From a virus (lineage: Duplodnaviria; Heunggongvirae; Uroviricota; Caudoviricetes): a stretch of 46,624 nt of DNA. Below are positions 17,877 through 46,624 of the stretch, in pieces. Under the pieces are notes generated by a model. That model was not told the origin of the DNA. It did not search any database and worked only from the letters and a program-made list of their open reading frames with translations. A program made the translations under genes and the position numbers. Numbering within the stretch: position 1 is the stretch's first letter; each line of letters begins with the position of its first letter. The DNA is taken from IMG/VR virus record IMGVR_UViG_3300029858_000359; one strand, given 5' to 3'.

Positions 17877-17925
17877 GATTCTTCACCCGTCAGAACAGGG
17901 GGCGCGGTTCCGCGCCCCTGAATGA

Positions 17926-19131: not shown

Positions 19132-19145
19132 CGTATTTCTCCTGA

Positions 19146-19832
19146 TTAGAAGTTCAGATTTTTCAGTGCATTCAGTGCAGAGCCCACATCCTCAGCGTCG
19201 CGCAGGGACAGTGCGCCATAGCCCCCGGCCATGAATGCTTTGGCCTGAGTACGGGAGAGTCCGACATCACGCAGGACTCTTTCGATTTTTTTCTGTTCGG
19301 GGATTTCCCCGCGGGCCAGTGCGTTCTTGACGTCGCTGATCCGCGCCTCGTCGTTAGACGGGAACGTCACCAGACTGACTTCCCAGAGGTCGATTTCTTT
19401 CAACAGAAAGGCTTCTTTGCTCCGGTCGTATTCCCAGTCTTTCAGGACGTACCCAATAGAAAGGCCGGTTAACGAACCGGCCTTCATGTGTGCATGTGCG
19501 CGTTTTGCGAGGGGATCATCATCAATGAGCAACCGTCCCCTGACGTAAAGCCCGACATCGTCTTCCTTCATTTCGGTGTAAACACCGATGGGTTCATCCA
19601 TGCGGTGCTGCCAGAGCAGCGCAGGTAACGCTTTTCTGTCACTCCACGCCCGCAGGGAAGCAGCAAATGCCCCGGACATCACCACATCATCGTGGCTGTC
19701 CTTTACACCAAAGACGGAGCCATACCCTTCAAACTCACCGGAGTCACTGACAGATTTCAGACTCAGCGGTACATCAAGACGTTGTTTCGTCTGCATTGGC
19801 GTTATCCTTCTGCTTACCGGCTTTACTGCCAT
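19146..19832 (-). CDS. Prohead serine protease, HK97 family
   Basis: 228-aa ORF between portal and capsid genes. Confidence 0.8.
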   Translation of the reverse strand: MAVKPVSRRITPMQTKQRLDVPLSLKSVSDSGEFEGYGSVFGVKDSHDDVVMSGAFAASLRAWSDRKALPALLWQHRMDEPIGVYTEMKEDDVGLYVRGRLLIDDDPLAKRAHAHMKAGSLTGLSIGYVLKDWEYDRSKEAFLLKEIDLWEVSLVTFPSNDEARISDVKNALARGEIPEQKKIERVLRDVGLSRTQAKAFMAGGYGALSLRDAEDVGSALNALKNLNF

Positions 19833-21015: not shown

Positions 21016-21197
21016 TATTTACCTCCGCCGACAGACGACTGTGTACGGTCGAGATATCGCGCCACCAGCCACGACCAGAACAGGCACAACGCCCCGGCAA
21101 CAACAAACCCCGCCGGGGGATAAATCAGCCAGGCACCATACGCCAGCAAAAGCGCCCCCAGCACGCCCACCAGAGGCGCGAGAATCAGCATGATCAT
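21015..21197 (-). CDS. Small hydrophobic protein, 60 aa
   Basis: ORF between terminase and portal genes; two predicted transmembrane helices. Confidence 0.4.
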
Positions 21198-21208
21198 AAT
21201 TACCTCAG

Positions 21209-22942
21209 TTAAAGCGAGCGGATCCCATAGGACTCAATGTGGTCAGACAGCGTGTCTTCTTTCTCGTACAGCATGGCTCTGCCAACCGCCATAATCAGCG
21301 CAACTGCACCATCGATTTTGTTTTCCGCCTGCTCTTTGACGGGCTTCACCACATCATCGTTACCCGGAATGGTTTTGCCGACCACGTTGCCGATACACCA
21401 GGTCATGATGGGATTGCCATCATGATGAAAGCGCCCCGATTCAATTGCCGCTTCCAGCTCTTTCATCGGGTCGGACATGTTGGTGTAGTTCTGAATGATA
21501 GTGATGGGGTTCAGGTCTTCATCAGCAAGGTCATGTGACAACCCGGTCGCCCCGAAGGGGTCGATGGGTGACTCACTGACCGGGCTGATTTTGTTCGCCG
21601 CTTTGGCCTCCTCGAGGATGTAGCGATAATCCACCTCCGCACCATCGGTAACGGTCAGAACGCCCATTTCCACCCATTTCTGAAAGCGTTCGGCTGTCCG
21701 GCGATCTTCATTTTTCTCGACGCTGTACACCGTGTCATACGGTACCCAGAAACGCGGGGCCACACTGTAGTAATGCGTTTTACCGTCAATCTCGCGGGTA
21801 TAAAGTCGCGCCATGCTGTTCATATCCAGCTTACGCGCCAGGTCAAAGGCCAGAATGCACGGCTGCCCCTCGAACTGCTCAAGGGTCAGTGATTTATCCT
21901 CGCAGCTCTGCCAGCTCACCAGGTTGAAATACGCCGAACGCGCCGACACCCAGATATTGAGGTGTTTTGTTTTAAAGACGTTTGCCAGACGGGCGTTATT
22001 TTTCGCACGCTGCTGCTGACTTAACAAAAATTCGCGATAAACCGACACGCCAATATTTGGATTGGCTTTTTCCAGCACCTGCGGGTCGGTCCAGTCGTCA
22101 CCTTCATCAACGGTATAGATGATCCCGAACAGTTCATCGTTGGGTACCGAACCGTTGAGCATCTCGATAACTTCCCGCCGCTTGTCGTAGCACGGCCCCT
22201 CAATGTTGTACCCGGCGGTGGTGATGGCCCACATCAGTGGCTGACGTCGCGCCCCCATCCCGGTAAGCATCGTGGTATAAAGCGCATCGGTGGCGTGCTC
22301 GTGATATTCATCCACCACCGCACAGTGGGGTGATGAACCATCACCAGGGTTACCGATCAGCGGTTCAAACCGCGCGCCATCCTCCGGACGGTTCATGTTT
22401 GAGGCGTTAACCTCAATCCCGAACGCTTCCGTCAGCATGGGTGTGCGTTTACACATCAGTCGCGCCGGGCGAAAGACTTCCCACGCCTGTTTCTCTGTCG
22501 TGGCACCGGAATACACTTCCGCGCCAAACTCGTTATCACAGGCAAAACAATACAGGGCAACACCGGCAGAGATTGCTGATTTGCCGTTCTTACGGGGGAT
22601 TTCGGTATACACCTCACGGAAGCGGCGCAGCCGGGAGCCTTTATTGACCCAGCCAAACGCGCAGCAGATCACAAAGAGCTGCCACGGCTCCAGCGTGATG
22701 GGCATCCTCTTAAATGCCCACTCACCCTTGGTGTGCGGCAACAGCTGAATAAATTTCGCGGCCCGTTCAGCCAGGTCCTTGTCGAAGCGGTAACGAAACG
22801 ACTTACTTTTTTCCTCCATCAGGTCATCAAGATGGCGCTGGCAGGCCTGAATCACAAACTGGCAGGCCACAATCTTTTCGCGCACGACATCACGGGCATA
22901 CTGATTGGCAGCATTTACGTTGGGGTAAGATTTCCGGCTCAT
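21209..22942 (-). CDS. Terminase large subunit
   Basis: 577-aa ORF with ATPase and nuclease regions, overlapping the small-subunit stop. Confidence 0.9.
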
Positions 22943-23442
22943 GATTCGATGATTTTCAGAAACGGGTTAGTGGCTTTCTTCTGCCCCGCCAGGCCAATCA
23001 GACGCTGGCGGCTGCTGGGGTCGAGTCCGAGCATTGCCCCCGTACTGCTCATCTCGGACTCCTGTTCTTTTTTGGCGGTCAGCTCCGGATTTTTGACCAT
23101 ACCGCCCATTGCACCGGTGATGGTGTTGCCCTGTCTGGCAATATTTTTCACGGCACGTCGCCAGAACTCGTAGGCCACGCACCACCGCTCAAGCACCGCG
23201 AGGTCAGTCACGCACAGCAGGCCCTGACCGCAGAGTTCTTTAGTTGTCAGTTGCCACATGATCGTAGCGAGAGGGAGATCTTCTTCAGCGAACCACTCCG
23301 GTGGCTCAACACCTTTGATGGGCGTAAAAACAGGTTCATCTTTATTCAGGGCTCGCTTGCCGGGGTTTCCGGCCAGCGCCTTGCGCGCCGTTGGCTTGGG
23401 GCGACGCCCGGAACGCCCCGCCGTTCCAGCCATATGCGGCAC
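22939..23442 (-). CDS. Terminase small subunit (P27-like)
   Basis: 167-aa ORF upstream of and overlapping the large terminase. Confidence 0.75.
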
Positions 23443-23483
23443 TCCTGGTTAAATTTCATTTTTCGCGGGTATAAAAAAACGAT

Positions 23484-23532
23484 GGGGCGGGCAGTCCGGA
23501 AGACGTCAGGTCACAGAGATTTGACCCGCCCC
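23484..23532. repeat. GC-rich inverted repeat between HNH and terminase genes, possible cos or packaging-site region
   Basis: GGGGCGGG ... CCCGCCCC separated by about 33 nt. Confidence 0.3.
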
Positions 23533-23558
23533 TCCCCTCAGACAGTTGAGAATTATTA

Positions 23559-23909
23559 TCACTTTAGCCGTTCACGGGCCGTCTTCGCCTTATGGCACGG
23601 CCAGCACAGGCTCTGCAGATTACTGTCTGCATCGGTGCCGCCATGCGCTTTAGGGATGATGTGGTCAACGGTTTTCGCCTCACGCACCACACCAGCACGC
23701 AGACATAACTGACACAGGCCTTTGTCACGCTTCAATATGCGCGCGCGGATACTGTCCCACTTCGAACCGTAGCCGCGCTGATGACGGGATTGCCCCGGCT
23801 TGTATTGTTTCCAGCCTTCGTTTTTGTGGCTTTCGCAGTAGCCTGACGAGTCAGTGGTGGTATGGGGGCAGCCGCGAACGCGGCAGGCTTTTGGGGTTCG
23901 TGGTGGCAT
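23559..23909 (-). CDS. HNH endonuclease (terminase-associated)
   Basis: Cysteine and histidine motifs CRVRGCPHTT, CQLCLRAG, VDHIIPKAHGG, CWPCHKAK; start set at the internal Met with AGAGGA ribosome-binding site. Confidence 0.85.
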   Translation of the reverse strand: MPPRTPKACRVRGCPHTTTDSSGYCESHKNEGWKQYKPGQSRHQRGYGSKWDSIRARILKRDKGLCQLCLRAGVVREAKTVDHIIPKAHGGTDADSNLQSLCWPCHKAKTARERLK

Positions 23910-24059
23910 TGCATAATCCTCTTGGATGGTTCGCGTGCGATACGTGGCATCCTTCTCAGAATCGAATCGCACTCCACTCCGGTTTTGCCATAAACGATCT
24001 TTTATGCTTCGCTGGATGTAGTTGATAGTTGTTGAAACTCAATGAACAGGAGTTCACAA

Positions 24060-27811: not shown

Positions 27812-28807
27812 TTACGCCAGTACGCCAATTGCCAGCGCACGATCGATAAAACGAAATATCAGCTCCAGTTGGGAGCCATACTTCTCTTCAAATGCCACGG
27901 TATCCGCATGCAGTTCGTCGTGATGCTTTCTGCACAAAGGCAACACAAAGAGGTCATGCGCTTTTGTACCCATTCCCCCCTGACCGTGGCCTATCAGGTG
28001 GTGGGGATCATCAGCAGGCTTTCCACAACATGCACACGGCTGTGTCTTAACCCAGCGCGTGTACTTTTCATTAACCCAGCGGCGACGTTTGGGGCGTAAC
28101 ATAAAAGACTCCGGCGACTCCGGCTCCACTTTCAGCGCCAGCACCTTTTTCGCCTTATCCTGGATGATGCTGGTGGCAGGAACCGAAGGCACAAGGTCAC
28201 TTTCCCGGGTGACAGACGGCGCAACAGGCTTCGGTAATCTCAGTGCCTTACGGGCTGCACTTTCCGGTAAAGCATCCGCCAGGTCATTACGAATCAGCCA
28301 CCAGCACAGTTCCGGCATTGTCACAACGTGACTGTCATCAAAACCGAGATCCCGACGCACAACAGACAACACCCAGCGGGCACAGTTATCCGTTGCCATT
28401 GATTCCAGCCGTTCCGTGAACTGATCGCGCAGCTGGTTATCGCAGTGCCAGCACAGACGGATTGCGCCCGGAGCGTGTCGCATTGTGGTCATGTTCTCGC
28501 TGTGCCAGTCGGAATGAGGCCACTGGCAGCCTTTTTCACGAAGTAACCAGCTTTCAAGACATTCCACTCCACCAGCACGACGAATCACTGCCTCATTGCG
28601 GAACACGGCCCGAACGGCAGGATCATCCGCCAGCGGTTGTGATGCCGCCGGAACGGCACCACTGGCGAAAGATGAATAACGTTCCGGCTCAGGCTCCAGC
28701 AGGACACGCCCCTGCATAAACAAGGGCATCAGCTCTGAACCTGGTCTGAACAATACGATCCCCATACGCGGGGCAATTTCAGGGGTCAGTAGTGCTCTCA
28801 CGGTCAC
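27812..28807 (-). CDS. DUF968-like phage protein
   Basis: C-terminal motif CACCGKPADDPHHLIGHGQGGMGTKAHDLFVLPLCRKHHDELH. Confidence 0.55.
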   Translation of the reverse strand: MTVRALLTPEIAPRMGIVLFRPGSELMPLFMQGRVLLEPEPERYSSFASGAVPAASQPLADDPAVRAVFRNEAVIRRAGGVECLESWLLREKGCQWPHSDWHSENMTTMRHAPGAIRLCWHCDNQLRDQFTERLESMATDNCARWVLSVVRRDLGFDDSHVVTMPELCWWLIRNDLADALPESAARKALRLPKPVAPSVTRESDLVPSVPATSIIQDKAKKVLALKVEPESPESFMLRPKRRRWVNEKYTRWVKTQPCACCGKPADDPHHLIGHGQGGMGTKAHDLFVLPLCRKHHDELHADTVAFEEKYGSQLELIFRFIDRALAIGVLA

Positions 28808-28808
28808 C

Positions 28809-29618
28809 TCAATGAACGGTAGCGAGCAGCTTTAATAGCTCAGGGAATCGGGATTCGAAAAAGTGCGGCTGCGTCTCGCGCGGATTTGCGGGACTGGTGA
28901 TGTTCTTGCCGAACATGCAGCCTTTCGCTGTTAGCGACCAGAATTTTTTGATGTTGTTAATCGCGGTACGGCTGTATCGTTCGCGCTGTTCGACGATCCC
29001 CAGCTTCACCATCTGGTGATATGCCTGATTAGCCGTAAGGCGGATACCATACTGCTTCAGCAGTGCACTCAATGATAGCGTAGGGCGGCTTGAGCCATCG
29101 AGTGCATCAGCAGGAGCATCAATGGCATAGCGCGGTGCCAGATTCGGTAAGCCAACAGCCTCCTGGAGTTTCTGACAGGCCCCAAGCACAGATGAGTTAG
29201 ACAGGTTTAACTCCCGACGCATAAAGTCCAGCAGAATCACTCCAGCCTGCATCTTGTCAGCAGCCTGTCCGGATAATTTTTCCGGTGCGCTGGTTACCAT
29301 GTCGAAAGTACGGATCACCTTCAGATGGAATGACGGGCTGATCCACATTGCATAGGCATACACCAGTTCCTTACAGACATACGTTCCCCGTTCATTTCCC
29401 CCATGAATCACACTCACCGGGTCAACACCCAAATTCTGGGTGTTGGTCAATTCATGAACAAGCTCAACAGTTTGTTGGCTGGAAAGAAACTTTCCTGGCT
29501 CCTTGGTTCTGGCATTTGCACCAGATGCTACTGCTGCGCGATGCAGATCGTTCAGGCTGTAACGCCCATAAGCATCACGACGAACTTCAATACCATCAAT
29601 GACCATCAGATTATTCAT
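28809..29618 (-). CDS. KilA-N domain or antirepressor-like protein
   Basis: 269-aa ORF; N-terminal region resembles the KilA-N fold. Confidence 0.45.
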   Translation of the reverse strand: MNNLMVIDGIEVRRDAYGRYSLNDLHRAAVASGANARTKEPGKFLSSQQTVELVHELTNTQNLGVDPVSVIHGGNERGTYVCKELVYAYAMWISPSFHLKVIRTFDMVTSAPEKLSGQAADKMQAGVILLDFMRRELNLSNSSVLGACQKLQEAVGLPNLAPRYAIDAPADALDGSSRPTLSLSALLKQYGIRLTANQAYHQMVKLGIVEQRERYSRTAINNIKKFWSLTAKGCMFGKNITSPANPRETQPHFFESRFPELLKLLATVH

Positions 29619-29637
29619 ACTTCGTTTCTCCTCTTAA

Positions 29638-30027
29638 TCAGGCAGCTGCACCCGCCGTTTTCTCGTACTTACTGATAGTGATCTCGACCTTCGCTTCCGG
29701 GATAACCGGTCCCCACTCCACCAGCATTCTTTTCACCTGACTGTCGTCTTCCCACACCCCCGCGTGGGTCAGGGCGTCAAACAGCGCCTTGTTATAGTTG
29801 TCCAGATCGCGGATCCTGTTATCCGGAGGAAACAACACGATCTCCACTGAAGCAGGTGCCGACGTTGGTTTCGGCAGACGACGTAACTGCTCAACTATTG
29901 CTGCGCACGCCGCGCTCTGGAATTTTCGCCCCGCCGCGCTTATCAGGCTCTTACCAGCAAACGCCCCTTTGTTGGGGTGTCGCCAGTACGTGTTCACGCT
30001 GGGCGGAAAAGGCAGGATCAGCTTCAT
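29638..30027 (-). CDS. rusA: Holliday junction resolvase RusA
   Basis: 129 aa; MKLILPFPPSVNTYWRH and DLDNYNKALFDALTHAGVWEDDSQV motifs. Confidence 0.85.
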   Translation of the reverse strand: MKLILPFPPSVNTYWRHPNKGAFAGKSLISAAGRKFQSAACAAIVEQLRRLPKPTSAPASVEIVLFPPDNRIRDLDNYNKALFDALTHAGVWEDDSQVKRMLVEWGPVIPEAKVEITISKYEKTAGAAA

Positions 30028-30350
30028 ACTTTCAGGCCCCTCTCATGTAACCAGTGGGTTGCACGCAGCCTTGCGTTTTCCTCACCGGCAAGCAGTGAGC
30101 GGATAATCCCGACCGCCTCGCTGTCGTCGTCCTTCACCGCGGTATGAAGCGTGATGCCCCGGGCCACGCCACGCTTTATCGTGATGACGCCTTTTTTCTC
30201 CAGTGCGCGAAGATGCTCCACCGCTGCATTCACTGAACGGTATCCCAGCATGGTTGCCACCTCCTGATTGGTTGGCGGGAAGCCACGTTCTTTCTGATAA
30301 GAAATCAGCATATCCAGCACCTGCTGCTGGCATTGAGTTAACGTCGTCAT
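30024..30350 (-). CDS. LexA N-terminal DNA-binding domain protein lacking the S24 peptidase domain
   Basis: QQQVLDMLISYQKERGFPPTNQEVATMLGYRSVNAAVEHLRALEKKGVI closely parallels the LexA winged-helix region; only 108 aa. Confidence 0.7.
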   Translation of the reverse strand: MTTLTQCQQQVLDMLISYQKERGFPPTNQEVATMLGYRSVNAAVEHLRALEKKGVITIKRGVARGITLHTAVKDDDSEAVGIIRSLLAGEENARLRATHWLHERGLKV

Positions 30351-31033
30351 GCCGCCATCTCCCTGACCAGTTTTTCTGCCTGCTGGCGAACCTGCGCCAG
30401 AAAGGCCTCACCACATGCCTCAAGTTCATCGCGCCCGATGTAGCTGATTGCCGGTCCCTTCCAGGTCTTGTCGAAAACAGCAATAGCACCAGCGAAGAAA
30501 GCGCCTGTCGGCACCTGCTTCTCATCCTTCGGGATAAACCAGGCAGGCAGTTCAAAACCAATACGCCCGCGAATAAAAGCAATATGATCTGCATCTTCCG
30601 GCCACCACACTTCGCTGGTGGCAGCTTTGATCAGGAAAACATAGCGCCCGCCTTTATCACGCATGGCACTGGCATGCTTCATGATGTAACGCATGCCGGT
30701 GATGTATTGCCCCTCATGCTGACTGGCGCGGCTGTATGGGGGATTACCAAAGGCAGCACCTTTAAGCTCCGCAAGGCGTTCTGACCAGTCATGCGCCAGC
30801 GCGTTGTCTTCCGCCGTGTAATACGCAGCACATTTGGCGTTATCACCGTCAGTAAACAGATCCAGAACAAACGGGCCAAACAGAGTGTTAATTCCCCAGA
30901 AAATGTTGTCCGGCGTGCGCCACTGATCGCCCACTTCCTTCAGTTCATGGGCTGGTTTGTTCCGCAGTTCCGCCAGCGCCTGGCAATATTTATTACTCAT
31001 TAAGCCCCCACGTAATTCCCTGAGAGATACCAC
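30347..31033 (-). CDS. Phage N6-adenine DNA methyltransferase
   Basis: Catalytic motif FGNPPYS; 228 aa; early-region position. Confidence 0.75.
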   Translation of the reverse strand: MVSLRELRGGLMSNKYCQALAELRNKPAHELKEVGDQWRTPDNIFWGINTLFGPFVLDLFTDGDNAKCAAYYTAEDNALAHDWSERLAELKGAAFGNPPYSRASQHEGQYITGMRYIMKHASAMRDKGGRYVFLIKAATSEVWWPEDADHIAFIRGRIGFELPAWFIPKDEKQVPTGAFFAGAIAVFDKTWKGPAISYIGRDELEACGEAFLAQVRQQAEKLVREMAA

Positions 31034-31494
31034 TCTTCACCTGATGCAGCCCGCTTACTGCTTTTCCGTAAACACCGTTCACGACGCGCCAGAAAATTGT
31101 TTCGTTCTGGCTGGGAGTGGCTTTCACGGAATGCCGCCATCCACACCGTTGCAGCACGACGGTATAAGCCCCTGGACTCCAGTTCTTCCGCCTGGCGGGT
31201 CAGGCACAAAATCACCCGCGGGTCGTTAGTGCCGACATAGAAATTGCGCACAGGTCTGGTTTCACGAACTGGTTGTGGTTCCGGATCCTGCGCTCTCTCA
31301 GTCAGGCGCGGGAAATGTCTGTGTGTATCTCCTTCACAACGGTGAGCCACACGCCCACTCTGACGTAACTTGCTTGCTGACTGCAGAACGCGCTGCCGTG
31401 AGTAACCTGCAAAAGCATCCGCAATGTCTCCGGAAGTACAGCCCGGATGGGCTTCAATGAATTTCTGAACGTCATTTAACAGACTCATGATCAC
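31000..31494 (-). CDS. Hypothetical phage early protein, 164 aa
   Basis: ORF downstream of the initiator gene; arginine-rich; no family recognised. Confidence 0.4.
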   Translation of the reverse strand: MIMSLLNDVQKFIEAHPGCTSGDIADAFAGYSRQRVLQSASKLRQSGRVAHRCEGDTHRHFPRLTERAQDPEPQPVRETRPVRNFYVGTNDPRVILCLTRQAEELESRGLYRRAATVWMAAFRESHSQPERNNFLARRERCLRKSSKRAASGEEWYLSGNYVGA

Positions 31495-32432
31495 CCCCTG
31501 AATCCTGCCGGGATCTGGCTGTAGTCCACATTGTCGTAACTGGCTTTGAAGTACGGGTCTTCGCGTTTTTCTGTGTACGTGCTGACGGACGGCGATAAGC
31601 GCAGGGAAAGCTCATCCCATTTTTCCCGCAGCTTCGACGGGCTGAGCACGTTACGGCACCAGAACGGATCGCGGCTGACGCGGCTGTACATCTCGCAGAT
31701 TTGTTTGTGAGTACGACCATCCTGCACACACATCAGGCGAATTTCGTTTGCCCAGGCTGTCCAGTTAGGTTCTTTGGGACGAACCACCTCGCCGTCACAT
31801 TCGGCGGCCTGCTCGTACAGGGCGATGATTTTTTTCCAAAGCCACTGTGCGCAGGTCAAATCATCCTGCGTCCCCCACTGGCGCTTTTTAGGGCTGAATA
31901 CAACCGCATCAGGATGGAGAGTTAAAAAATCCTGTCCATCCGTCTGCGTGTCCGGTTGCGAAGCGTCCGGACGAGAAGGTTTTTTATCTGACGGATCATG
32001 TTTTGATTTTACTGACGGATCCCCGCCAGATTCTGACGGGTGAAAACCCGCTTTTTTGCCAGATTTCGACGCATCAAATTTTGACGGGTCAGATTTTGAT
32101 GCGTCAGATTTTGACGGGTCAGAATCTGACAGTTGAGAAAATGCCGCTGCCTGAAGCTTCGCAACGTTAAGCTGATAAACATTCGACGCATTACGGTTAC
32201 CCTGGCGACGCGCCTTACGCGTTAACCAGCCTTCTGCTTCCAGCCGTGCGATAGCCGTTCTGACGGTACTCATCCCCGCGCCAATCTGGCGGGCAATGGT
32301 TTCAATTGATGGCCAGCACACACCTTCGTCATTACTGAAATCAGCCAGGCGGGCCATAATTGCCACGCTGGATAACTTCATGCCTGACGCAGCGCAACCA
32401 TCCCATACATAGCCGGTTAATTTAGTGCTCAT
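31491..32432 (-). CDS. Replication initiator, lambda O-like, with internal origin iterons
   Basis: N-terminal helix-turn-helix region; coding sequence contains about 8 tandem 15-bp repeats encoding a repetitive SDPSKSDASKSD linker. Confidence 0.7.
   Translation of the reverse strand: MSTKLTGYVWDGCAASGMKLSSVAIMARLADFSNDEGVCWPSIETIARQIGAGMSTVRTAIARLEAEGWLTRKARRQGNRNASNVYQLNVAKLQAAAFSQLSDSDPSKSDASKSDPSKFDASKSGKKAGFHPSESGGDPSVKSKHDPSDKKPSRPDASQPDTQTDGQDFLTLHPDAVVFSPKKRQWGTQDDLTCAQWLWKKIIALYEQAAECDGEVVRPKEPNWTAWANEIRLMCVQDGRTHKQICEMYSRVSRDPFWCRNVLSPSKLREKWDELSLRLSPSVSTYTEKREDPYFKASYDNVDYSQIPAGFRG
31985..32140. repeat. Origin-like iterons (about 15-bp tandem repeats, consensus near AGATTTTGACGGGTC)
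   Basis: TCTGACGGATC, AGATTCTGACGGGTG, AGATTTCGACGCATC, AAATTTTGACGGGTC, AGATTTTGATGCGTC, AGATTTTGACGGGTC, AGAATCTGACAGTTG in tandem. Confidence 0.7.
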
Positions 32433-37012: not shown

Positions 37013-37231
37013 GTGGAGAAACATATGCTGAACCTCGATTGTGTTCCTATCTCAACTTATTGCAAAGAAACTGGCGAAACTCCTGAAGCAATAAACAAAC
37101 GTGTACAGCGCGGTGTTTGGCGTGAAGGTGTTCAGGTTTTAAAGGTTGAAGGCGTTAAGGAGAGGTGGATTGATCTTAGTGAGGTTGCAAAATGGGCCAG
37201 ACAAAACTGCTCAAACTACCGCGCGGCGTAA
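37013..37231 (+). CDS. Excisionase (Xis-like)
   Basis: 72-aa basic protein with GGAG ribosome-binding site, overlapping the start of the integrase gene. Confidence 0.65.
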   Translation: MEKHMLNLDCVPISTYCKETGETPEAINKRVQRGVWREGVQVLKVEGVKERWIDLSEVAKWARQNCSNYRAA

Positions 37232-38358
37232 CAATCAGGAAACACCGCCAGGGCGAAACGATCAATATAACTTTCACCTACAAAGGCGTTAAATGTCGTG
37301 AGCCTCTTTCCAATCTGGAAGTAACACCAAAGAACATTAAATACGCCGAGCGCACACTCGGCGAAATTCATAATAAGATCGAAAGGGGAACATTCATTTA
37401 TGCGGAATATTTTCCCCGTTCTGCTCGTTTGAAAATTTTTGGTAATGCTGCTGCAGGCAAAACGGTAAAAATGTACCTGGACGAATACCTTGAAATCTGC
37501 GAAACGAGAAAACTTTCACCATCTACGATTGGTGGTTATAAAAAATGCCGTAGTGCGTTAGCCTCACTCCACATTTGCCCTGCAAGTGAATTAACACCAG
37601 CAATCCTGAAAGCGTGGATTCAAAGCCAGAAAACGACCTTAAAAACAATTCGCAACCAGTTATCTTTCCTGCGGTCAGCACTTGATGAAGCCGTAACCGA
37701 TGGGGTACTTCAAATTAACCCCGTATCGTTGGTAACTGCTTCGCGCTACCAAAGTGATAAGTCAGAAGCAGAAAGCAGCTATGTGGTTGATCCGCTATCA
37801 CCAGCAGAAGTTGATGCATTACTAGCAGCAGCCGGAAACAAACAATGGGAAAATCTGTTCCGGTTCGCCATACATACAGGCCTGCGTAGTTCTGAATTAT
37901 GTGCCCTACGATGGCATGATATCGACTTTGTTGGAAAAACAGCCCATGTTCAGAGCGCAAGTGTTGTCGGAGTTATCAAAGGAACAAAGACAAAAGCCGG
38001 TACCCGTAAAGTTGAACTGACTGAAGAAGCAATGTTGGCGTTGATAAACCAGAAGCCATTTACATTCATGAAGGATGCTACTGTCTTTGAAGATCCAAAG
38101 ACCAATAAACCCTGGGCAAGTGCTGATGCAATTAGGAAAAAAGCATGGGTGCCAACATTGCGAAAAGCAGGTATTCGTTACAGAAACCCATATCAAACCA
38201 GGCATACATTCGCCACCAGACATATCAGCCGGGGAGCAAACCTGTTTTGGCTTGCAGCTCAAATGGGGCATAAAGGGCCTGAGATGCTTTTCAGGCACTA
38301 TGGCTCATATCTGAAGGAATATGATGGACAAACAAGCTTGAAGAAGATAACAATATAA
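37192..38358 (+). CDS. Tyrosine integrase of the prophage
   Basis: 388 aa; C-terminal catalytic region RHTFATRHISRGANLFWLAAQMGHKGPEMLFRHYGSY. Confidence 0.9.
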   Translation: MGQTKLLKLPRGVTIRKHRQGETINITFTYKGVKCREPLSNLEVTPKNIKYAERTLGEIHNKIERGTFIYAEYFPRSARLKIFGNAAAGKTVKMYLDEYLEICETRKLSPSTIGGYKKCRSALASLHICPASELTPAILKAWIQSQKTTLKTIRNQLSFLRSALDEAVTDGVLQINPVSLVTASRYQSDKSEAESSYVVDPLSPAEVDALLAAAGNKQWENLFRFAIHTGLRSSELCALRWHDIDFVGKTAHVQSASVVGVIKGTKTKAGTRKVELTEEAMLALINQKPFTFMKDATVFEDPKTNKPWASADAIRKKAWVPTLRKAGIRYRNPYQTRHTFATRHISRGANLFWLAAQMGHKGPEMLFRHYGSYLKEYDGQTSLKKITI

Positions 38359-38375
38359 TCCAAGCATGAAACTAT

Positions 38376-38400
38376 TGGCCACAATTTGTGGCCATTTTAC
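38376..38400 (+). terminator. Perfect 19-bp palindrome followed by T-run between int and the OLD-like gene (terminator or operator)
   Basis: TGGCCACAATTTGTGGCCA followed by TTTTAC. Confidence 0.45.
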
Positions 38401-38416
38401 GGAGCAAGATAGAAAC

Positions 38417-40150
38417 ATGGCAAATCAAATTACCAAACTAAAAAATATAAATGTTGTGAAGTTTCGCGGACTGAAAAATATAAACATCGAGTTTGGTTCT
38501 CGCCTAACTGTTATTTGTGGTAAAAATGGCACATCTAAATCCACAATTCTTGGCATTATCGCCCAAATATTTAGCTTTACAAAGGACTTTACCAAAAACC
38601 CTGAGACTGATTTAACACAATATAAAACATTAACAAATGGCAGCTTCAAGTCAGCTTTCAGCGAACATTTTAGGCTTTCAGAACAATTTGATGTTCCTGG
38701 TTCAATGGACGTCAAAATTAGTGTCTATGATGGTGCATCGAACAAACATCTTGAAAAACTAACATTAGGTTTATACAGCTACAGTGACAGAGATAAATCA
38801 AGGCCTGTAGTCAGGGGAAATGATTCAATACCGGAAAAAAACCAAAGTAGAAACGTTACTCATCCTGTTATTTTTTTAAGCTTAGCACGACTTCTTCCTA
38901 TTACATTAAGGACTGATTACTCAACACGGGATGTTCAGTACATCAATGAAAATTCTGATGAAATCAGAATGATGAGTAACCAACTCTTACTAAAAAACAA
39001 TGGAAGCTCAGTAACAGCAACAAAAGGTACTATCGATTCAATGGTTGTCCATGGTGACAATTATGATCACCAATCAGTATCTGTTGGTGAAGATAATGTT
39101 GGACAATTAATCCAAGCAATTTTTTCATTTAAAAGATTGAAGGAAACTTATTCTGATTATCATGGCGGAATATTGTTAATTGATGAAGCCGATGCAGGTC
39201 TTTTCCCTGCTGCACAGTTAGAGCTAATTAATATTCTAACTAAAGCAGCAAAACAATACGATCTGCAAATAATCATGACCTCGCACTCTCCATTAATAAT
39301 AGAGGATATCTATAATCGTTCAAAACAAGATAGTGATAGCTTTAAAACAATATATCTTACAGACACATATGGAGATATTAAAACAAAGAATAATCTTTCA
39401 TGGACAGATATCCACGCTGATTTACATGTTGAAACTGTAAAAATTAATGATGACATTTGTCTTCCAAAGGCAAATGTATATTTTGAAGACAAAGAAGGTT
39501 TCGACTTTTTCAAACAATTGATAACAGATCGAAAAATAAATAAAATATTAAATCCATTAGGGAATATAAATATTAGCTGCTCTGCCATGCTTGACTTAAT
39601 GGCAAGAAAAATACCAGAATTTACAGCTAAAAGCTTGATCGTCTTAGACGGTGATGTTGTTCACGACAATAGTGCTAATGCAAAAAAAGCCAAAAAAGAA
39701 AAAAACTTATGTTTGCTTCCAAGCACCTTACCTCCAGACCAAATGATTTTTGAGTTTTTATATAATTTACCACCTGATGATGCATATTGGGAAAATAAAA
39801 ATAAATTTACAAAAGCTGTTTTTATGAAAACAGCTAAAGACATAATTGCAACGCTAAAGATTGGTAACGCTCCGATTGATTTAAAAATCCTTATAGATAA
39901 TTATAAAAAAGTTAACAAAAACCATGGCGGGATAGTTAGAAAACTGTTTAAAGATTTTGCACATACGACTCAATTTCAGGCCCAAGTAAAAGGGCGAGTT
40001 AAAGATAACCCATATCGATATTGGGTCGAGAAAAATCCTGTGCAATCGGATAGCTTCAAGAATGAACTAATAAAGAGTCTTAAAGTTATTATGACAAGTG
40101 GACATGGTGTCGATTCTGCTACCATCTCATCATATCTGTCAGATAACTAA
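38417..40150 (+). CDS. OLD-family nuclease-like protein: N-terminal ABC/AAA-type ATPase plus C-terminal TOPRIM-like domain
   Basis: Walker A GKNGTSKST, Walker B ILLIDEADAG, TSHSP signature, C-terminal FEDKEG and LIVLDGDVVHD (Glu and DxD TOPRIM-like); start at MANQITK (ORF track start 38366 lacks a ribosome-binding site). Confidence 0.7.
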   Translation: MANQITKLKNINVVKFRGLKNINIEFGSRLTVICGKNGTSKSTILGIIAQIFSFTKDFTKNPETDLTQYKTLTNGSFKSAFSEHFRLSEQFDVPGSMDVKISVYDGASNKHLEKLTLGLYSYSDRDKSRPVVRGNDSIPEKNQSRNVTHPVIFLSLARLLPITLRTDYSTRDVQYINENSDEIRMMSNQLLLKNNGSSVTATKGTIDSMVVHGDNYDHQSVSVGEDNVGQLIQAIFSFKRLKETYSDYHGGILLIDEADAGLFPAAQLELINILTKAAKQYDLQIIMTSHSPLIIEDIYNRSKQDSDSFKTIYLTDTYGDIKTKNNLSWTDIHADLHVETVKINDDICLPKANVYFEDKEGFDFFKQLITDRKINKILNPLGNINISCSAMLDLMARKIPEFTAKSLIVLDGDVVHDNSANAKKAKKEKNLCLLPSTLPPDQMIFEFLYNLPPDDAYWENKNKFTKAVFMKTAKDIIATLKIGNAPIDLKILIDNYKKVNKNHGGIVRKLFKDFAHTTQFQAQVKGRVKDNPYRYWVEKNPVQSDSFKNELIKSLKVIMTSGHGVDSATISSYLSDN

Positions 40151-40157
40151 TTGATTA

Positions 40158-40196
40158 AAAAGGGCTTTATGTGATGGCCACAAAGCCCTTTTTTTG
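40158..40196 (+). terminator. Rho-independent terminator after the OLD-like gene
   Basis: AAAGGGCTTT-loop-AAAGCCCTTT followed by TTTTTT. Confidence 0.65.
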
Positions 40197-40229
40197 ATAT
40201 ACTTTAGATCTGACATTTAGAGGTATCAT

Positions 40230-41129
40230 ATGCGTTTTAACACCCCACTTCGCTATCCTGGCGGTAAAGGCAAGCTTGCAAATTTCATGCTTCGGCTTAT
40301 TGAAGAAAATAATCTTTCGCCTATACATTATGCCGAACCATATGCTGGGGGTGCTGGTTTAGCATTGAAACTGTTACATCTAAATGCAGCTGAAAAAATC
40401 ATCCTTAATGATATTAATATTTCTGTTTATGCTTTTTGGCACAGTGTATTAAATCATGCAGATCAATTATGTTCTTTAATTGAAAGAACTGAAGTTACAA
40501 TGGATGAATGGTTTAGGCAGAAAGATATAATTAATAATCCTAAAGACCATGATCTTTTAACAATTGGTTTCTCAACCTTTTTTCTCAATAGAACAAATCG
40601 TTCTGGAATATTAAAAGGTGGAGTAATTGGCGGTAAAAATCAAGAAGGGAAATGGAAGCTTGACGCTCGCTATAATAAGAGTGATTTGATTTCTCGAATC
40701 CATAAAATATCAGAAAATCGTCACAGAATAGATTTATATAACATGGATGCAATTGATTTCATTAAAAAAATAGTTATTCAATTGCCACAAAACTCATTAA
40801 CATATTTGGATCCACCTTATTACATAAAAGGTAAAGGTTTATATATCAACCATTATAATCATGATGATCATGTTAGGGTTGCAAAAGTCGTACAGAATAA
40901 TATTAAAACACCTTGGATTGTTTCTTACGATAACACTCCTGAGATCCAAGCTATGTATAAGACATCATCATTAGTATATGGAATAAACTACAGTGCTCAA
41001 GATCGGTACAAAGGATCTGAGGTAATGTTCTTCAGTGAACGATTGAAAATCTTTAAAACAGATGATCCAACTAAGGTAAAAGCGCCTGTATTTAAAAGAG
41101 GATGTGTTGACGACCACATCCAGACATAA
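40230..41129 (+). CDS. Dam-family (alpha-class) N6-adenine DNA methyltransferase
   Basis: Motifs RYPGGKGKL, EPYAGGAG (AdoMet binding) and DPPY (catalytic), order as in Dam; AGAGG ribosome-binding site. Confidence 0.8.
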   Translation: MRFNTPLRYPGGKGKLANFMLRLIEENNLSPIHYAEPYAGGAGLALKLLHLNAAEKIILNDINISVYAFWHSVLNHADQLCSLIERTEVTMDEWFRQKDIINNPKDHDLLTIGFSTFFLNRTNRSGILKGGVIGGKNQEGKWKLDARYNKSDLISRIHKISENRHRIDLYNMDAIDFIKKIVIQLPQNSLTYLDPPYYIKGKGLYINHYNHDDHVRVAKVVQNNIKTPWIVSYDNTPEIQAMYKTSSLVYGINYSAQDRYKGSEVMFFSERLKIFKTDDPTKVKAPVFKRGCVDDHIQT

Positions 41130-41201
41130 AAGGAGCCGCAAAAGATCCGCAGAATAAAATGGTTAGTATTAATCGTTTTATTTCAGCTAATTATAAAAAT
41201 A

Positions 41202-41234
41202 CGGACTCGGGTTCAACTCCCGCCAGCTCCACCA
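41202..41234. repeat. attR of the prophage and attL of the following P4-type island: copy of the ssrA 3' end
   Basis: CGGACTCGGGTTCAACTCCCGCCAGCTCCACCA, 32 of 33 identical to 1028-1060. Confidence 0.85.
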
Positions 41235-41399
41235 CTTTTTAGTTGTTTGAAGTTCAATGAAGTCTACTAAGCCCACACAGCACAAGCTCTGCGGGCTTTT
41301 TTACGTCTATTGTCGTCCAGTGAGAATTGCTGAGAACTACGAGTTATGGCACCCTGAATGGGACCCACTAAGAAGGGTCCAAAAACCGAGGGTCCCAAA

Positions 41400-42629
41400 A
41401 TGGCAAAAATCGCTAAGAAGCTCACTGACACTGAAATCAAAAGCACCAAGCCAGCCGATAAAGAAATCAACTTGTTTGACGGTGATGGTCTGATTCTACG
41501 AATCGCTCCTTTGGCGAAAGGAGGCAAGAAAAATTGGTATTTCAGGTATGCAGTACCAGTGAGCAAGAAAAGAACCAAAATGAGCCTTGGGACATATCCT
41601 CACCTTACCCTTGCAAGAGCCAGAGCCTTACGTGATGAATATCTCTCCTTTCTGGCAAATGGTGTTGATCCCCAAATCCATAACAACGATAAGGCGAAGG
41701 CATTAAAGAGTGCTACTGAGCACACTCTCCAAGCCGTAGCGCGGAAATGGTTAGATGAGAAGGTAAAGACATCAGGTATCTCACAAGACCATGCAGCAGA
41801 CATCTGGCGCAGCTTAGAGAGAAATGTCTTTCCCGGTCTGGGTAATGTCCCTATCAATGAGATCCGACCTAAGCTCTTAAAACAACACCTTGATCCTATT
41901 GAGCAACGAGGCGTATTGGAAACTCTACGCCGTATCATTTCACGTCTGAATGAAATCTTCCGGTGGGCAGCTACTGAAGAACTTATTGAGTTCAACCCGG
42001 CTGACAACCTTGGTCAAAGATTCAGTAAACCAAAAAAGCAAAATATGCCTGCCCTTCCCCCAAGCGAATTGCCAAGGTTTATGGAATCTTTGACGAATGC
42101 GTCAATCCGGTTGGAAACACGTATGCTAATTGAATGGCAATTGTTGACATGGGTTCGTCCGGGTGAAGCCGTTCGCGCAAGGTGGTCTGATATTGATACA
42201 ACCAACAGCATTTGGAACATTCCTGCTGATTTCATGAAAATGAAAAAGCTTCACAAAGTTCCTTTGAGTAAAGAAGCTTTGCGCATCCTTGAATTAATGA
42301 AATCAATAAGTGGGCATAGAGAATGGGTTTTCCCCAGCATAAAAGCGCCTCTTAATCATATGCATGAACAAACAGCCAACGCAGCTATCATCCGAATGGG
42401 GTTCGGAGGCGAGCTTGTAGCTCACGGTATGCGTTCTATTGCACGAACAGCGGCAGAGGAGTCTGGTAAATTCAGAGCTGAAGTTCTTGAGGCAGCGCTT
42501 GCCCACTCGAAAAAAGATGAAATTATCGCAGCATACAATCGTGCAGAATATCTGATAGAGCGACAGAGTTTGATGCAATGGTGGAGTGATTACGTTCAAG
42601 CTCAAAGATCAAATGCTCTGGTAGCCTAA
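41400..42629 (+). CDS. P4-type tyrosine integrase
   Basis: N-terminal arm-binding region LFDGDGLILRIAPLAKGGKKNWYFRY typical of P4/CP4-57 integrases; C-terminal catalytic region AHGMRSIARTAAEE...AALAHS; start taken at MAKIAKK. Confidence 0.85.
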   Translation: MAKIAKKLTDTEIKSTKPADKEINLFDGDGLILRIAPLAKGGKKNWYFRYAVPVSKKRTKMSLGTYPHLTLARARALRDEYLSFLANGVDPQIHNNDKAKALKSATEHTLQAVARKWLDEKVKTSGISQDHAADIWRSLERNVFPGLGNVPINEIRPKLLKQHLDPIEQRGVLETLRRIISRLNEIFRWAATEELIEFNPADNLGQRFSKPKKQNMPALPPSELPRFMESLTNASIRLETRMLIEWQLLTWVRPGEAVRARWSDIDTTNSIWNIPADFMKMKKLHKVPLSKEALRILELMKSISGHREWVFPSIKAPLNHMHEQTANAAIIRMGFGGELVAHGMRSIARTAAEESGKFRAEVLEAALAHSKKDEIIAAYNRAEYLIERQSLMQWWSDYVQAQRSNALVA

Positions 42630-42667
42630 GTATCATAATAGCTAATATAATCCTGAAGGTAAAGAAA

Positions 42668-43084
42668 ATGGAAACCCTATTCAAAGTTTTTGAAAAATTT
42701 AGTTCCAGACCACTTTTTTTTATTTTTTTCGGACTCTCACTTTGTGAATTTTTTCAGAAACAATCTGTTCTGATGAATCCATCAGCAGATAACATCGCGA
42801 AATTATTCGCAGCCATGATATTAGTTGTTTTTTTTACTTGGGGATTTGAATGGCTAATCTTCAAGTTCAATGTAAACCTTGAACCTCATGATCAAGGCGA
42901 TATTGGACCAACAATTGGAACGGCTACTTTAGCTGTATACTTAGTTTATGCCTTTCACTTTCTCAGTGAAAATCCTGAAGCATTAAATTTAAAGTTATTA
43001 ACTAACTCTGGCTTTATATACAGCACAACTCTATTATTATTCTCATTAGAATGCATGAAGCTTAGAAGACTTAAACAAAAATAA
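42668..43084 (+). CDS. Hypothetical polytopic membrane protein, 138 aa
   Basis: AT-rich ORF with GAAGG ribosome-binding site; several hydrophobic helices. Confidence 0.5.
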   Translation: METLFKVFEKFSSRPLFFIFFGLSLCEFFQKQSVLMNPSADNIAKLFAAMILVVFFTWGFEWLIFKFNVNLEPHDQGDIGPTIGTATLAVYLVYAFHFLSENPEALNLKLLTNSGFIYSTTLLLFSLECMKLRRLKQK

Positions 43085-43155
43085 ACAACATCATTGTGAT
43101 GATAAATATAAAATAGGCATGGCGAAAAAAAATCACCACGCCTAAAATATAATAA

Positions 43156-44922
43156 TTATGGTAGCATCATTGATACATAATCCACACCAATCCTTGAGCT
43201 ATACTGAGACGCTATAGCCTGATATCTTTCTGCATAACCAGTTCTCAGTTGAGATTTAAGTTTGAGTCGGACAGGAACATTTTGCACGTTGCCATCCATA
43301 TTACTTAAAAACACGGCAGAAATAATATTTTTTTCTTCGCCATCAACTGTTGTTCCATGATTCAACACCACCATATAATCAACAACAGGAAGCGTTTTAT
43401 CCCCTTCGAAAATAGAGAGATATTTTCTTTGATTTTTATGCATTACATATATATATTTCGAATGTTCAGCAAATGGCAATGCTTTACTCTGACTGGCGTT
43501 AAAAAGCTCCAGAACTTTAATGAGCCTGTGCGGACTTAATCTTACATGGTGAGGGTCGTTACCCTGAGTAGGAACCAAATCACATGCCGCAGATACACAT
43601 AAATACCATTTGTTCGACTCTGTATCAAAGAAAATAGTGCCAGTAGAAATATGACCATCTTCAAAATTCTTTGAAGACAAATTCATATTTAAAGCATGAT
43701 ACATTTCGTGATAAGTATCATTATTTGATGGCAGATCCATTTTTGAAGAGCAATATTGGAGCAATGCAGCAACTCCGCTGTTAGCGTATTCATTTGAATA
43801 GCTATCAAAAACACTTTTGATAAATTCATCCAGCGTATTATTATTTTTAAGTCTTTGATAAAGCTCTTCTGATAAATTACCAAATACAAAGTCAATATTT
43901 CTACATCTAATATCAGGCGAGTCTGATTTTAATATCTCATTTAACCACGCAGCTTGACCGTAATGATCGTTAGCCAAATGATTTACAAAAGATAAAGCCT
44001 CAGCTTCGATTGCATTCTGAATTTCAGATTTTATTAACTGATAATAAGATGGTTTCCATTCAATGAGAGAATCATTGAGAGTTTGCCAAATCCTATCTCC
44101 ATCGTTTTCATGATCATCTTGAACCTTATGAAATAGGGAGACAAAGATATTACCACATTGAATCCATTTTACTCCGCTTTCATCACCCCGAATGACATTG
44201 CCAGATGTGTTGCTAGAAATAATTGCATTTCTAGACACAGCATATTCTGCAATCATTTTTGCAATGAAGTTTTTATCCTTTTGATCCTCCAACACAGCAT
44301 CATCATGTATTAATCTTTTAATTCTTCTACAAGGCTTACTGTCTTTAATATAGGCTATTGTTTCATCTCTTGTGAGAGCTTTATTACCATTATCATTTAA
44401 GTTCGGTAATACAACGTCTTCCCAATAACTTTGGACATCTTCATTATCGTAGTCAATGATCAAGCTGTTGATATCCAGAGCACCTTTGAGAGTCGATGAT
44501 ATCTGCATCCAAACCGTTTCTAAATTCTCTCTAGTATATATTACAATCATATTTAAATGATCGGAGTCTTTCAAATCTTGTAATAGTTTAAGTGTTTTAT
44601 CAGGTGCATTATTATCAAGATGATAATCTACAATAATAAGATCTGATTTTCTAATCCGATCCACATCGAAATTAACAGAACCATTGTCAACATCACAAAT
44701 CATATTTTTAGATTGAAAAAAGCTCTCAAGAGTAGCGGCTCGTTTAGATGAGTCAATTTTGTTGTAGTCTAAATCAACTTCGTTATTCAACGCCCTGATT
44801 GATTCAGAATACGTCAGAAAATCGTCATCAATCATGACAACGGAACGAATTGCATTTTCGCAGAAAGTTTTCTGGACAAGAGAATTATAAATTGCCACTG
44901 TCATATTAGAACTCCACTCCAT
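43156..44922 (-). CDS. Receiver (REC)-like domain protein with about 430-aa C-terminal domain of unknown function
   Basis: N-terminal region VVMIDDD ... SDLIIVDYHLDNNAPDKTLKLLQDL ... NMIVIYT follows response-regulator receiver topology; no DNA-binding output recognised; start overlaps the stop of the upstream kinase-like gene. Confidence 0.6.
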   Translation of the reverse strand: MEWSSNMTVAIYNSLVQKTFCENAIRSVVMIDDDFLTYSESIRALNNEVDLDYNKIDSSKRAATLESFFQSKNMICDVDNGSVNFDVDRIRKSDLIIVDYHLDNNAPDKTLKLLQDLKDSDHLNMIVIYTRENLETVWMQISSTLKGALDINSLIIDYDNEDVQSYWEDVVLPNLNDNGNKALTRDETIAYIKDSKPCRRIKRLIHDDAVLEDQKDKNFIAKMIAEYAVSRNAIISSNTSGNVIRGDESGVKWIQCGNIFVSLFHKVQDDHENDGDRIWQTLNDSLIEWKPSYYQLIKSEIQNAIEAEALSFVNHLANDHYGQAAWLNEILKSDSPDIRCRNIDFVFGNLSEELYQRLKNNNTLDEFIKSVFDSYSNEYANSGVAALLQYCSSKMDLPSNNDTYHEMYHALNMNLSSKNFEDGHISTGTIFFDTESNKWYLCVSAACDLVPTQGNDPHHVRLSPHRLIKVLELFNASQSKALPFAEHSKYIYVMHKNQRKYLSIFEGDKTLPVVDYMVVLNHGTTVDGEEKNIISAVFLSNMDGNVQNVPVRLKLKSQLRTGYAERYQAIASQYSSRIGVDYVSMMLP

Positions 44923-46624
44923 TGAACTGGATCACAAAATTAGCGCCATCTTTTATTAAATAGTTATCGCCTTCATCAGGTTCTGAATACCATATTTTAT
45001 GATGTGCAACAGCAAGGTTTTCTCGACATAGATACAGACCTACCCCATGTCCATTTGCTCTTTTGCTATAAAATAGTTCAAATAGTCACGGGATATCATC
45101 GGTATCAATTGCCGGACCAGAATTTGCTATGATAACCAAAGAATTCACAAAACCAATCTTTATGAGCCTATTATTTGACAGACTGACCCAATACATTGCA
45201 TTGTTGATAATATTAGTAAAAACAGGATAGATCCTTGATGGTATATCTGTTATTGCGATTTGCTTAAACTCTTCACTAAATTCAATAGTTATTCGTTGCC
45301 GTTCGAAACGCTCCCCAAAGAACTTCAGGACATAATCCATGATATTTTTTCCAGTTATTCTCTGCCTGGATTGATAACCTGATATTTTCAAAGGTGATAA
45401 GAAACGTATTTGTTGAGTAAGCGATCTGTGAGCATTTAACGCCAATGAAAAACCAGGGTGTTCTTTTACAGAAGTAGGAAGAGAGTTTAGTCCTCTGGTT
45501 ACCATAGAATCCATTTCTTCAAGTTCATGAGATATTATCTCAACACTAATACCTAACTGTGCAAGCGCGTTTAAACTTTTAGCTTTTTCTTCAAAATATG
45601 AGCGTTCTTCTTCAGATAATGAGAATGCTGAATCTAAGTTTATACCTTCAAATAATCTATCGAGACCTTTTATTATTGATTGATATTTGAAAGTTAGGGT
45701 ATCAACTGACTCAACATATAAACTATCGAGCAAATTAAACACATTTTCAATTTGTGAATCATTATCTATTGAATCAACAACTGATATAGTTTTAGCATAA
45801 TAATCACTTCGATCAACCTTTATTTCATCGGCCCATTTTTTTAAAAGAGAATGTATCTTCTCCTCTATCGTGTTATTAAACTTAGTTAGTTTAGAATTAA
45901 TAATACCTTGATTTTTTTCAAGGTGATTTTTCGCTGACAATGAAGGCTCAAGTTTATTTAATTCAGAATCAAGTTTATTAATTGCTAACTTCATTTGTAG
46001 AATATACGCAGAGAACTCATTAAATTTATCTCTGTAGTCTCTATATTTCTCTTCATACATTCCAAGTTTTGGAGGTTTGATAGGCGTTTTAATTTCACTG
46101 CGCAACGCATCTAAGTTTGTAAGATCACTGTCTATAATTTTAAGATAGTTTAAATCTAACGAACCATCAGTTTTATCAAGCTTAGTTTTCAGCCTTTTAA
46201 CAGCCTCCAAGGAAGCATCAAGAACTGGTGTCTGATTCTTCAAAGCTTCTGAAAAACTTTTTTGTGTTGATTTTCGAGCTTGTTGTTGAGCAGATTTTCT
46301 TAACTCTTTTTCACGCTTAACTTGTTCTAAAAGCTCTTTACGGTCATCAGAACGTGAACCAAAAAATCTATCAGCAAGTTCAGTTAACAAATTAGATATA
46401 ATAGTTTTCAGTTCTCTTGCAGCCTGGTTTCTTATGAATCCCTCTCTCCCCGACTTATCTTTCAGCTCTTTATTACTGGATTGAGTAATTCCAATATAAC
46501 CAAAAATCCTTCTATTAGACCAATAATATCGCCCTGCATTCCATGAACGTCTTTCTTCTATCTGGAAGAAATCATTATCTACTCGACCATAAGGTAATAC
46601 TCTCAAGCTATCCCTAAAAATCAT
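44906..46624 (-). pseudogene. Histidine-kinase-like gene interrupted by an in-frame TGA (45086-45088); N-terminus beyond the window
   Basis: H-box-like SHELEEMDSM, N-box NIINNAMYW, G1 IANSGPAI, then in-frame TGA, then same-frame LFELFYSKRANGHGVGLYLCRENLAVAHH (G2 box) ending at the TAA at 44906. Confidence 0.55.

Follow-up and report, generated by a model that had tools for sequence, protein, structure and literature searches.

The Pfam families PF19191 (HEF_HK) and PF19192 (Response_reg_2) were built from exactly the gene pair considered here, a histidine-kinase-like gene followed by a receiver-domain gene (Bellieny-Rabelo, Pretorius, Moleleki, Genome Biol Evol 2021, PMC8011034), and a copy of this pair lies at positions 42,630 to 46,624 of the DNA we analysed, IMG/VR record IMGVR_UViG_3300029858_000359 (46,624 nucleotides; this whole stretch is called the window). 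In the 2021 survey, linkage of the two genes was 91.6% across 644 regions, the predominant ('group 1') kinase architecture was HATPase_c_3 + HEF_HK + HATPase_c, and a 'group 2' without HATPase_c_3 was also listed. C5 methylases, Vsr and restriction-modification (R-M) genes were enriched nearby, descent of the kinase from paraMORC ATPases was reported with an E. coli member among the examples, and the authors proposed that the pair regulates R-M systems (PMC8011034). More recently, Table S5 of DefensePredictor (Science 2026, PMC13092281) named these E. coli proteins 'Predicted novel defense gene', with log-odds of 12.0 for the receiver protein (WP_000214990.1) and 6.6 for the 572-residue kinase (WP_000577254.1). 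A similar outline is found in Detocs (Rousset et al. 2023), where a cytoplasmic kinase passes phosphate to a receiver fused to an effector (cell-killing in Detocs) and no DNA-binding domain is involved; its DtcB component is a stand-alone receiver and not the Hpt protein that a sequence-only reading of the window had assumed. Our literature search found no experimental function for the HEF_HK/Response_reg_2 architecture; apart from the 2021 description it turned up the DefensePredictor tables and GHKL-Shedu studies, which are unrelated.

The window copy belongs to the same family as the described pairs and has the same kinase-then-receiver order, and its relatives share the link to methylase and Vsr genes, but in the copy itself the HATPase_c_3 half and the G2 box are missing, and so is the methylase. 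Thus the architecture, which the sequence-only reading had thought might be distinct, is already known, and the window copy is degenerate. We read it as the inactivated remnant of a three-gene module whose intact form would be a phosphorelay-gated toxin or restriction system, a composite reading to which we give a probability of roughly 0.7; that the window copy is an inactivated remnant of a conserved three-gene module is, taken alone, very probable. The 2021 paper did not count the methylase as a third, integral component, left the fold of the receiver protein's C-terminal region undescribed and proposed R-M regulation; in contrast to it, the present analysis favours an effector role.

Both genes are confirmed by their matches to HEF_HK and to Response_reg_2, far beyond chance. 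The minus-strand open reading frame (ORF) 45086-46624 (512 amino acids) matches HEF_HK with 27.0 bits (cut-off 24.1), and its frame passes an in-frame TGA to end at TAA 44906-44908. The H, N, G1 and G2 boxes proposed earlier are all in this frame, but G2 is downstream of the TGA and outside the 512-residue ORF; as it stands, with its stop before G2, the window kinase ORF gave no HATPase_c match in the Pfam scan, and with the TGA repaired the 572-residue kinase also matches HATPase_c (E 1.7e-11). The putative phospho-acceptor, His366 in the window and His782 in full-length numbering, is followed by Glu, and this His-Glu is invariant in the kinase family. The remnant keeps the coiled coil, the DHp domain and most of HATPase_c, and is without the N-terminal MORC/MutL-type ATPase. 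Compared with E. coli 2014C-3307 over 3,995 nucleotides (nt), the window shows three base differences: at 45088, changing CGA to TGA; at 44891, where receiver-protein residue 11 is Ile in the window and Asn in 2014C-3307; and at 42636, which is intergenic. The 81 nt around the TGA have an identical counterpart in 0 of 561 complete E. coli genomes, so the TGA is either private to this strain or a sequencing error. At this codon position all ten aligned kinase family members have Arg or Lys. Selenocysteine insertion or read-through was considered and rejected, since a conserved Arg/Lys is replaced and every other E. coli genome has CGA.

One genome per species was scanned with the receiver-protein family and six-frame ORFs were scored by profile hidden Markov models for the methylase, kinase and receiver, giving 52 loci, 45 of them informative. 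In 45/45 informative species-level loci the receiver gene has the kinase gene directly upstream on its own strand (with a 1-nt spacer in the window), the kinase is full-length in 44/45, and a C5 DNA methylase (PF00145) lies within the flank in 43/45: directly upstream on the same strand in 32 loci, downstream and convergent in 8, downstream on the same strand in 2 and 3 kb off in 1. One of the two methylase-less loci stops 130 nt past the receiver gene. The conserved unit is three genes, with the C5 methylase an integral partner, and not the two-gene unit described from the window, in which the methylase is missing. Furthermore, a homologue of the very-short-patch repair endonuclease Vsr is found near the module in 20/52 loci (within L032-L067), which would fit an active 5-methylcytosine methylase. 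In L065 the Vsr match lies inside the methylase's own stop-to-stop ORF. A separate restriction endonuclease gene was absent from seven annotated contexts except for a weak HNH match (L013), the 45 loci not having been checked systematically for one.

The family is spread over Proteobacteria, Acidobacteria, Verrucomicrobia and further phyla. The pair travels on mobile DNA and is no housekeeping two-component system; it was found on an ssrA island that also has a relaxase, on a Tn7-like transposon (Acinetobacter), on conjugative elements (Acidobacteria, Citrobacter) and in prophage-like regions. In Acinetobacter (L006-L008) the module is cargo of a transposon with TnsB/C/D/E. There the convergent methylase has a small helix-turn-helix (HTH) protein (10889-11104) as its neighbour, which recalls the controller (C) proteins known from type II R-M systems. 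The intact kinase is a soluble protein of about 980 residues in which a coiled coil joins a MORC/MutL-type GHKL ATPase to the DHp His and HATPase_c core. Down to 38% identity, its invariant residues comprise the N-terminal Bergerat motifs (E32/N36/D39, D61xGxG, G104-G109) as well as His782-Glu, the N box, a G1-like GP..D and the G2 motif GxGxG, from which the full-length kinase is predicted to have two ATP sites and a phospho-acceptor His.

How the window copy lost its remaining parts can be followed through its relatives. The closest full-length kinase orthologues (988 residues, 99% identical, in Serratia, Klebsiella and Salmonella) carry HATPase_c_3, the N-terminal MORC/MutL-type ATPase, and the E. 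coli kinase protein equals residues 417-988 of one of them, P0144, at 99% identity. The intact island runs smpB, ssrA, integrase, a 138-residue ORF, receiver, kinase and C5 methylase, the methylase gene overlapping the kinase start, and continues with a relaxase and other recombinases. The kinase N-terminus is not, as had been supposed, simply beyond the window edge: in nearly identical genomes the gene annotated there as 'ATP-binding protein' has a start codon that opens, on the minus strand, with base 46624, and in the E. coli loci homology to the intact gene breaks off at an IS3 terminal inverted repeat, 122 nt upstream of the Met417 codon. IS3 is annotated at this junction both in a strain with a simple arrangement and in a strain with the window's prophage-plus-island arrangement. 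About 375 kinase codons and the partner methylase gene are absent from these loci; only the 122-nt stub is present in 558/5,426 complete E. coli genomes, and the methylase and kinase N-terminus of this allele in 0/5,426. The shared stubs, the absence of intact copies and the IS3 at the junction point to a single ancestral IS3-associated deletion, which took out the methylase together with kinase residues 1-416 and is now found in about 10% of E. coli. Within the window the only methylase gene is the prophage's PD-Lambda-5 B, which is of Dam type and unrelated, the C5 partner having been replaced by IS3 in E. coli; this PD-Lambda-5 methylase (40230-41129) was rejected as the module's partner, being of Dam type and on the prophage side of the att-like repeat. 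The truncated kinase stub was also found, with a receiver protein 100% identical to that of the window, on a 5.6-kb contig of a 'Bacteroidales' metagenome-assembled genome (L017, DAIPZW010000118.1), which is probably mis-binned E. coli DNA.

As the window kinase is without its N-terminal ATPase, native start and promoter, methylase partner and G2 box, the window copy most likely has no activity, and an inert, unphosphorylated receiver-effector would explain the persistence of the stub without the methylase. The locus itself therefore has little significance as a dead remnant, and cloning it, with or without the TGA repaired, tests nothing; the repair suggested by the sequence-only reading only restores the common truncated E. 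coli allele.

The receiver gene is apparently intact. Residues 25-181 of its product match Response_reg_2 with 109.1 bits (cut-off 27), and all 38 aligned receiver-protein homologues match this family too. RefSeq and most homologues start at Met7 (ATG 44902-44904), 1 nt past the kinase TAA, which is probably the real start and gives 582 residues; the stop/start overlap proposed for the two genes thus holds for the longest ORF (ATG 44922) and not for the Met7 start. Overlaps of 4-11 nt between kinase and receiver genes are seen in other taxa. The receiver domain has a receiver fold with a helical insert of about 100 residues ahead of beta-5, its invariant residues are D32, D33, D99, T130 and K266, and it is followed by a helical linker domain (about residues 293-416) with a near-invariant SEIQNxIE helix and by a beta-rich domain (about 417-575) with a helix at its end. 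In the structural model this C-terminal domain is a beta-barrel. Among 1.84 billion representative proteins the region turned up in 268 clusters, in every case fused to this receiver domain, and a word-indexed homologue search for effector swaps with the receiver domain alone as query returned fragments only.

For the C-terminal 300 residues, Pfam scanning of the 38 homologues up to E 1 gave no consistent family, the receiver-family profile had no match among PDB sequences, and Foldseek of the C-terminal model against PDB gave nothing significant. The earlier claim that this region has no DNA-binding output stands: Pfam placed no such domain in any of the 38 members, and the C-terminal model had no winged-helix or HTH match. 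The module is accordingly two-component-like and its genes are predicted defence genes, as DefensePredictor Table S5 has it, but it differs from a classical transcriptional two-component system in that its receiver protein is without a recognisable DNA-binding output domain. With regard to type II R-M systems, its relatives keep a methylase, often with Vsr, and neither kinase nor receiver proteins showed any known endonuclease fold. PADLOC and NCBIfam scans that covered the two proteins as well as intact homologues yielded nothing more than generic matches.

In order to rationalise these features, we propose a methylation-referenced phosphorelay. The methylase would mark host DNA as self, and the MORC-type ATPase half would act as a sensor of invading or unmethylated DNA, or of interference with methylation. 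The kinase core would then autophosphorylate on His782 and hand the phosphate to Asp99 of the receiver protein, and phosphorylation would activate the C-terminal barrel, probably via dimerisation of the receiver, with the outcome that the invader is restricted or cell growth arrested. The parts required for His-to-Asp phosphotransfer are conserved at sequence level in the family. The barrel may be a MazF/CcdB-like toxin; as receiver domains and MazF/CcdB proteins both act as dimers, activation by dimerisation is plausible. Against a MazF/Kid/CcdB toxin fold, no antitoxin gene stands at the module, and the receiver protein's conserved Cys447, Asn412, Arg560, Arg577 and Asp581 are not residues known from MazF or CcdB. 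Comparison by hhalign gave a probability below 1% for both MazF and CcdB, and no PemK or CcdB Pfam match was found among the 38 receiver-protein homologues. That the intact module works by this scheme is a tentative proposal, with the odds slightly against it, and its most specific form, in which the intact family is a new restriction-like immunity whose MORC-type clamp ATPase-kinase reads C5 methylation and whose phosphotransfer unleashes a MazF/CcdB-like toxin, the E. coli stub being its fossil, we consider unlikely.

Coupling of DNA modification to an infection-triggered toxin has a possible parallel in PrrC-EcoprrI, in which a latent anticodon nuclease is held by a type I R-M system. PrrC has no homology to the module and is controlled by protein contacts and a phage peptide, with no phosphorelay. 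The kinase has company among the paraMORC and MutL-like GHKL ATPases of restriction-type systems (Iyer, Abhiman, Aravind 2008; Mza of Gao 2020; GHKL-Shedu VcSduA, PMC12137116), since the intact kinase has an N-terminal Bergerat ATPase with invariant motifs and is encoded next to a DNA methylase on mobile DNA; the paraMORC and Mza systems share this theme of a GHKL ATPase beside a methylase, and the module differs from them by its predicted phosphorelay. HHblits in DefensePredictor gives the intact kinase a remote link to MzaB.

Several points weigh against the composite reading. With the receiver gene intact and the truncated kinase uninterrupted in about 560 genomes, residual activity is possible. 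As the sequence past 46624 is outside the window, the IS3 junction had to be deduced from relatives with 99.6-99.9% identity over the module. An RNase- or gyrase-poison-type effector is an awkward fit with an obligatory DNA methylase. Finally, an intact homologous E. coli pair (989-residue kinase, 607-residue receiver) is listed as 'defensive = FALSE' in DefensePredictor Table S6 (PMC13092281). The constructs tested, 2CM2 and 2CMP (contig coordinates 1444-6229), held the kinase and receiver genes only and excluded the methylase (PMC13092281). Because the methylase, immediately upstream in most loci, was left out, this negative defence test is not decisive, and the integral third gene may explain the failure of the only reported test.

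The same negative test can be read differently, namely that the intact module is not anti-phage at all and serves as an addiction or regulatory device of mobile elements, either a post-segregational killing pair of methylase and phospho-controlled toxin or a regulator of a neighbouring R-M system. The tight methylase linkage, the location always on integrative or conjugative elements or transposons and the enrichment of R-M domains nearby (PMC8011034) are all in keeping with this. Against it, the receiver protein has no DNA-binding or transcription output that can be recognised, the seven annotated contexts lack a separate restriction endonuclease gene save for the weak HNH match in L013, and the negative test was done without the methylase and with a limited phage panel. 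We consider such a device improbable.

A second explanation concerns the E. coli allele, which could be a still working minimal defence or signalling system made of the 572-residue kinase core and the receiver-effector, perhaps transcribed from IS3, the window copy alone being inactivated by its TGA or the TGA being a sequencing error. In about 560 complete E. coli genomes the two reading frames run without interruption at 99% identity or more, and these genomes retain the DHp His and the whole HATPase_c, the 'group 2' kinases of the 2021 paper (PMC8011034) likewise do without HATPase_c_3, and DefensePredictor scored both proteins as defensive. All copies share a single IS3 junction, however, so their abundance reflects descent and not selection, and divergence is too small for purifying selection to show. 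The native start and promoter are lost, as are the sensor ATPase and methylase, 44/45 species-level loci keep a full-length kinase, and even an intact pair gave no defence. A functional truncated pair is in our judgement distinctly improbable.

In PADLOC-DB 2.0, whose release presumably includes the Detocs models, no family (DtcA and DtcC thus included) reached E 0.01 or better with the kinase or the receiver protein, in truncated or in intact form, and the module is not Detocs-like at the level of sequence. That the module is a member or variant of Detocs is extremely improbable in spite of the same logic, a soluble kinase and a receiver fused to a non-DNA-binding effector on mobile DNA, for besides this missing PADLOC match there is no stand-alone DtcB-type buffer receiver ORF in 42630-46624 or in the intact loci, the sensor is a MORC-like ATPase where Detocs has TPR repeats, PNP and the other listed Detocs effectors all differ from the effector here, the receiver is a separate Pfam family with a weak PF00072 contact in only 3/38 members, and an obligatory DNA methylase partners the module.

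The composite reading, an inactivated remnant of a phosphorelay-gated three-gene module, moves the interest from the window to the family, which is widespread, mobile and predicted to be defensive, and whose kinase protein is unusual in joining a MORC-type ATPase to a histidine kinase. The family is a good experimental target, provided that the three genes together form the test construct.

Coordinates of the module and its surroundings in the window
Feature	Position	Strand	Remarks
ssrA (tmRNA gene)	698-1060		
ssrA 3' end, first copy	1023-1060		
Prophage's own integrase	37192-38358		At far end of prophage
ssrA 3' end, second copy (att-like repeat)	41197-41234	+	Direct repeat of 1023-1060, 92% identical, 38 nt
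P4-type tyrosine integrase	41358-42629	+	423 residues, intact ORF; Pfam Arm-DNA-bind_3, Phage_int_M, Phage_integrase
Hydrophobic ORF	42668-43084	+	138 residues, about four hydrophobic segments
Terminator-like hairpin	43114-43144	-	Just past receiver stop; 12-pair stem, 6 G-C pairs, T-rich tail
Receiver-effector gene	43156-44904	-	582 residues from Met7 (588 from ATG 44922); apparently intact
Histidine-kinase-like gene remnant	44906-46624	-	Pfam HEF_HK; equals residues 417-988 of 988-residue protein
G2 box GHGVGLYL	45029-45052	-	Downstream of TGA
Nonsense codon, CGA to TGA	45086-45088	-	Arg513 (Arg929 full-length); severs G2 box and rest of ATP-binding domain
G1 box	45104-45127	-	
N box	45188-45214	-	
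H box SHELEE	45515-45532	-	Motif mapping
Phospho-acceptor His codon (DHp, HEF_HK)	45527-45529	-	

Comparison with nearly identical genomes identifies the window as an E. coli chromosomal segment whose first base is at the smpB start codon. The second copy of the ssrA 3' end shows that a prophage of about 40 kb integrated between ssrA and an older integrase island, and the repeat is the border of the two; the two ssrA 3' ends bracketing the prophage indicate tandem occupation of the ssrA site. The same prophage-island junction is present in only 2/5,426 complete E. coli genomes. The P4-type integrase named in the sequence-only reading is there with its three Pfam integrase domains, and the same gene adjoins ssrA in the intact islands L002 and L003. 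The description of the pair as first cargo of the integrase island holds to the extent that the kinase/receiver module is cargo of the older ssrA island, which begins with this integrase, but that island now lies 40 kb from ssrA. The 138-residue ORF, which had no match in Pfam, PADLOC or NCBIfam, is kept between the integrase and receiver genes in intact and truncated enterobacterial islands and does not occur in the loci of other taxa; it is a passenger of the island, outside the conserved module.

The prophage itself has ymfK/ymfL/ymfT-like genes in its relatives. Between its integrase and the att-like repeat, at 38366-41129 (plus strand), lie genes for an AAA ATPase (594 residues), which matches PtuA/GajA-like families, and then a Dam-type methylase (299 residues), which matches PD-Lambda-5_B (E 5e-124); this looks like a PD-Lambda-5 defence pair. 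At 32060-32134, inside the minus-strand ORF 31491-32432, a 15-nt unit (CAGATTTTGACGGGT-like) is repeated in five overlapping copies, which resemble origin iterons inside a lambdoid replication gene. The structural blocks of the prophage (6000-24000 and 28000-32000) have 54-59% G+C, well above the E. coli average, and the defence and cargo regions (38000-46624) have 32-40%.

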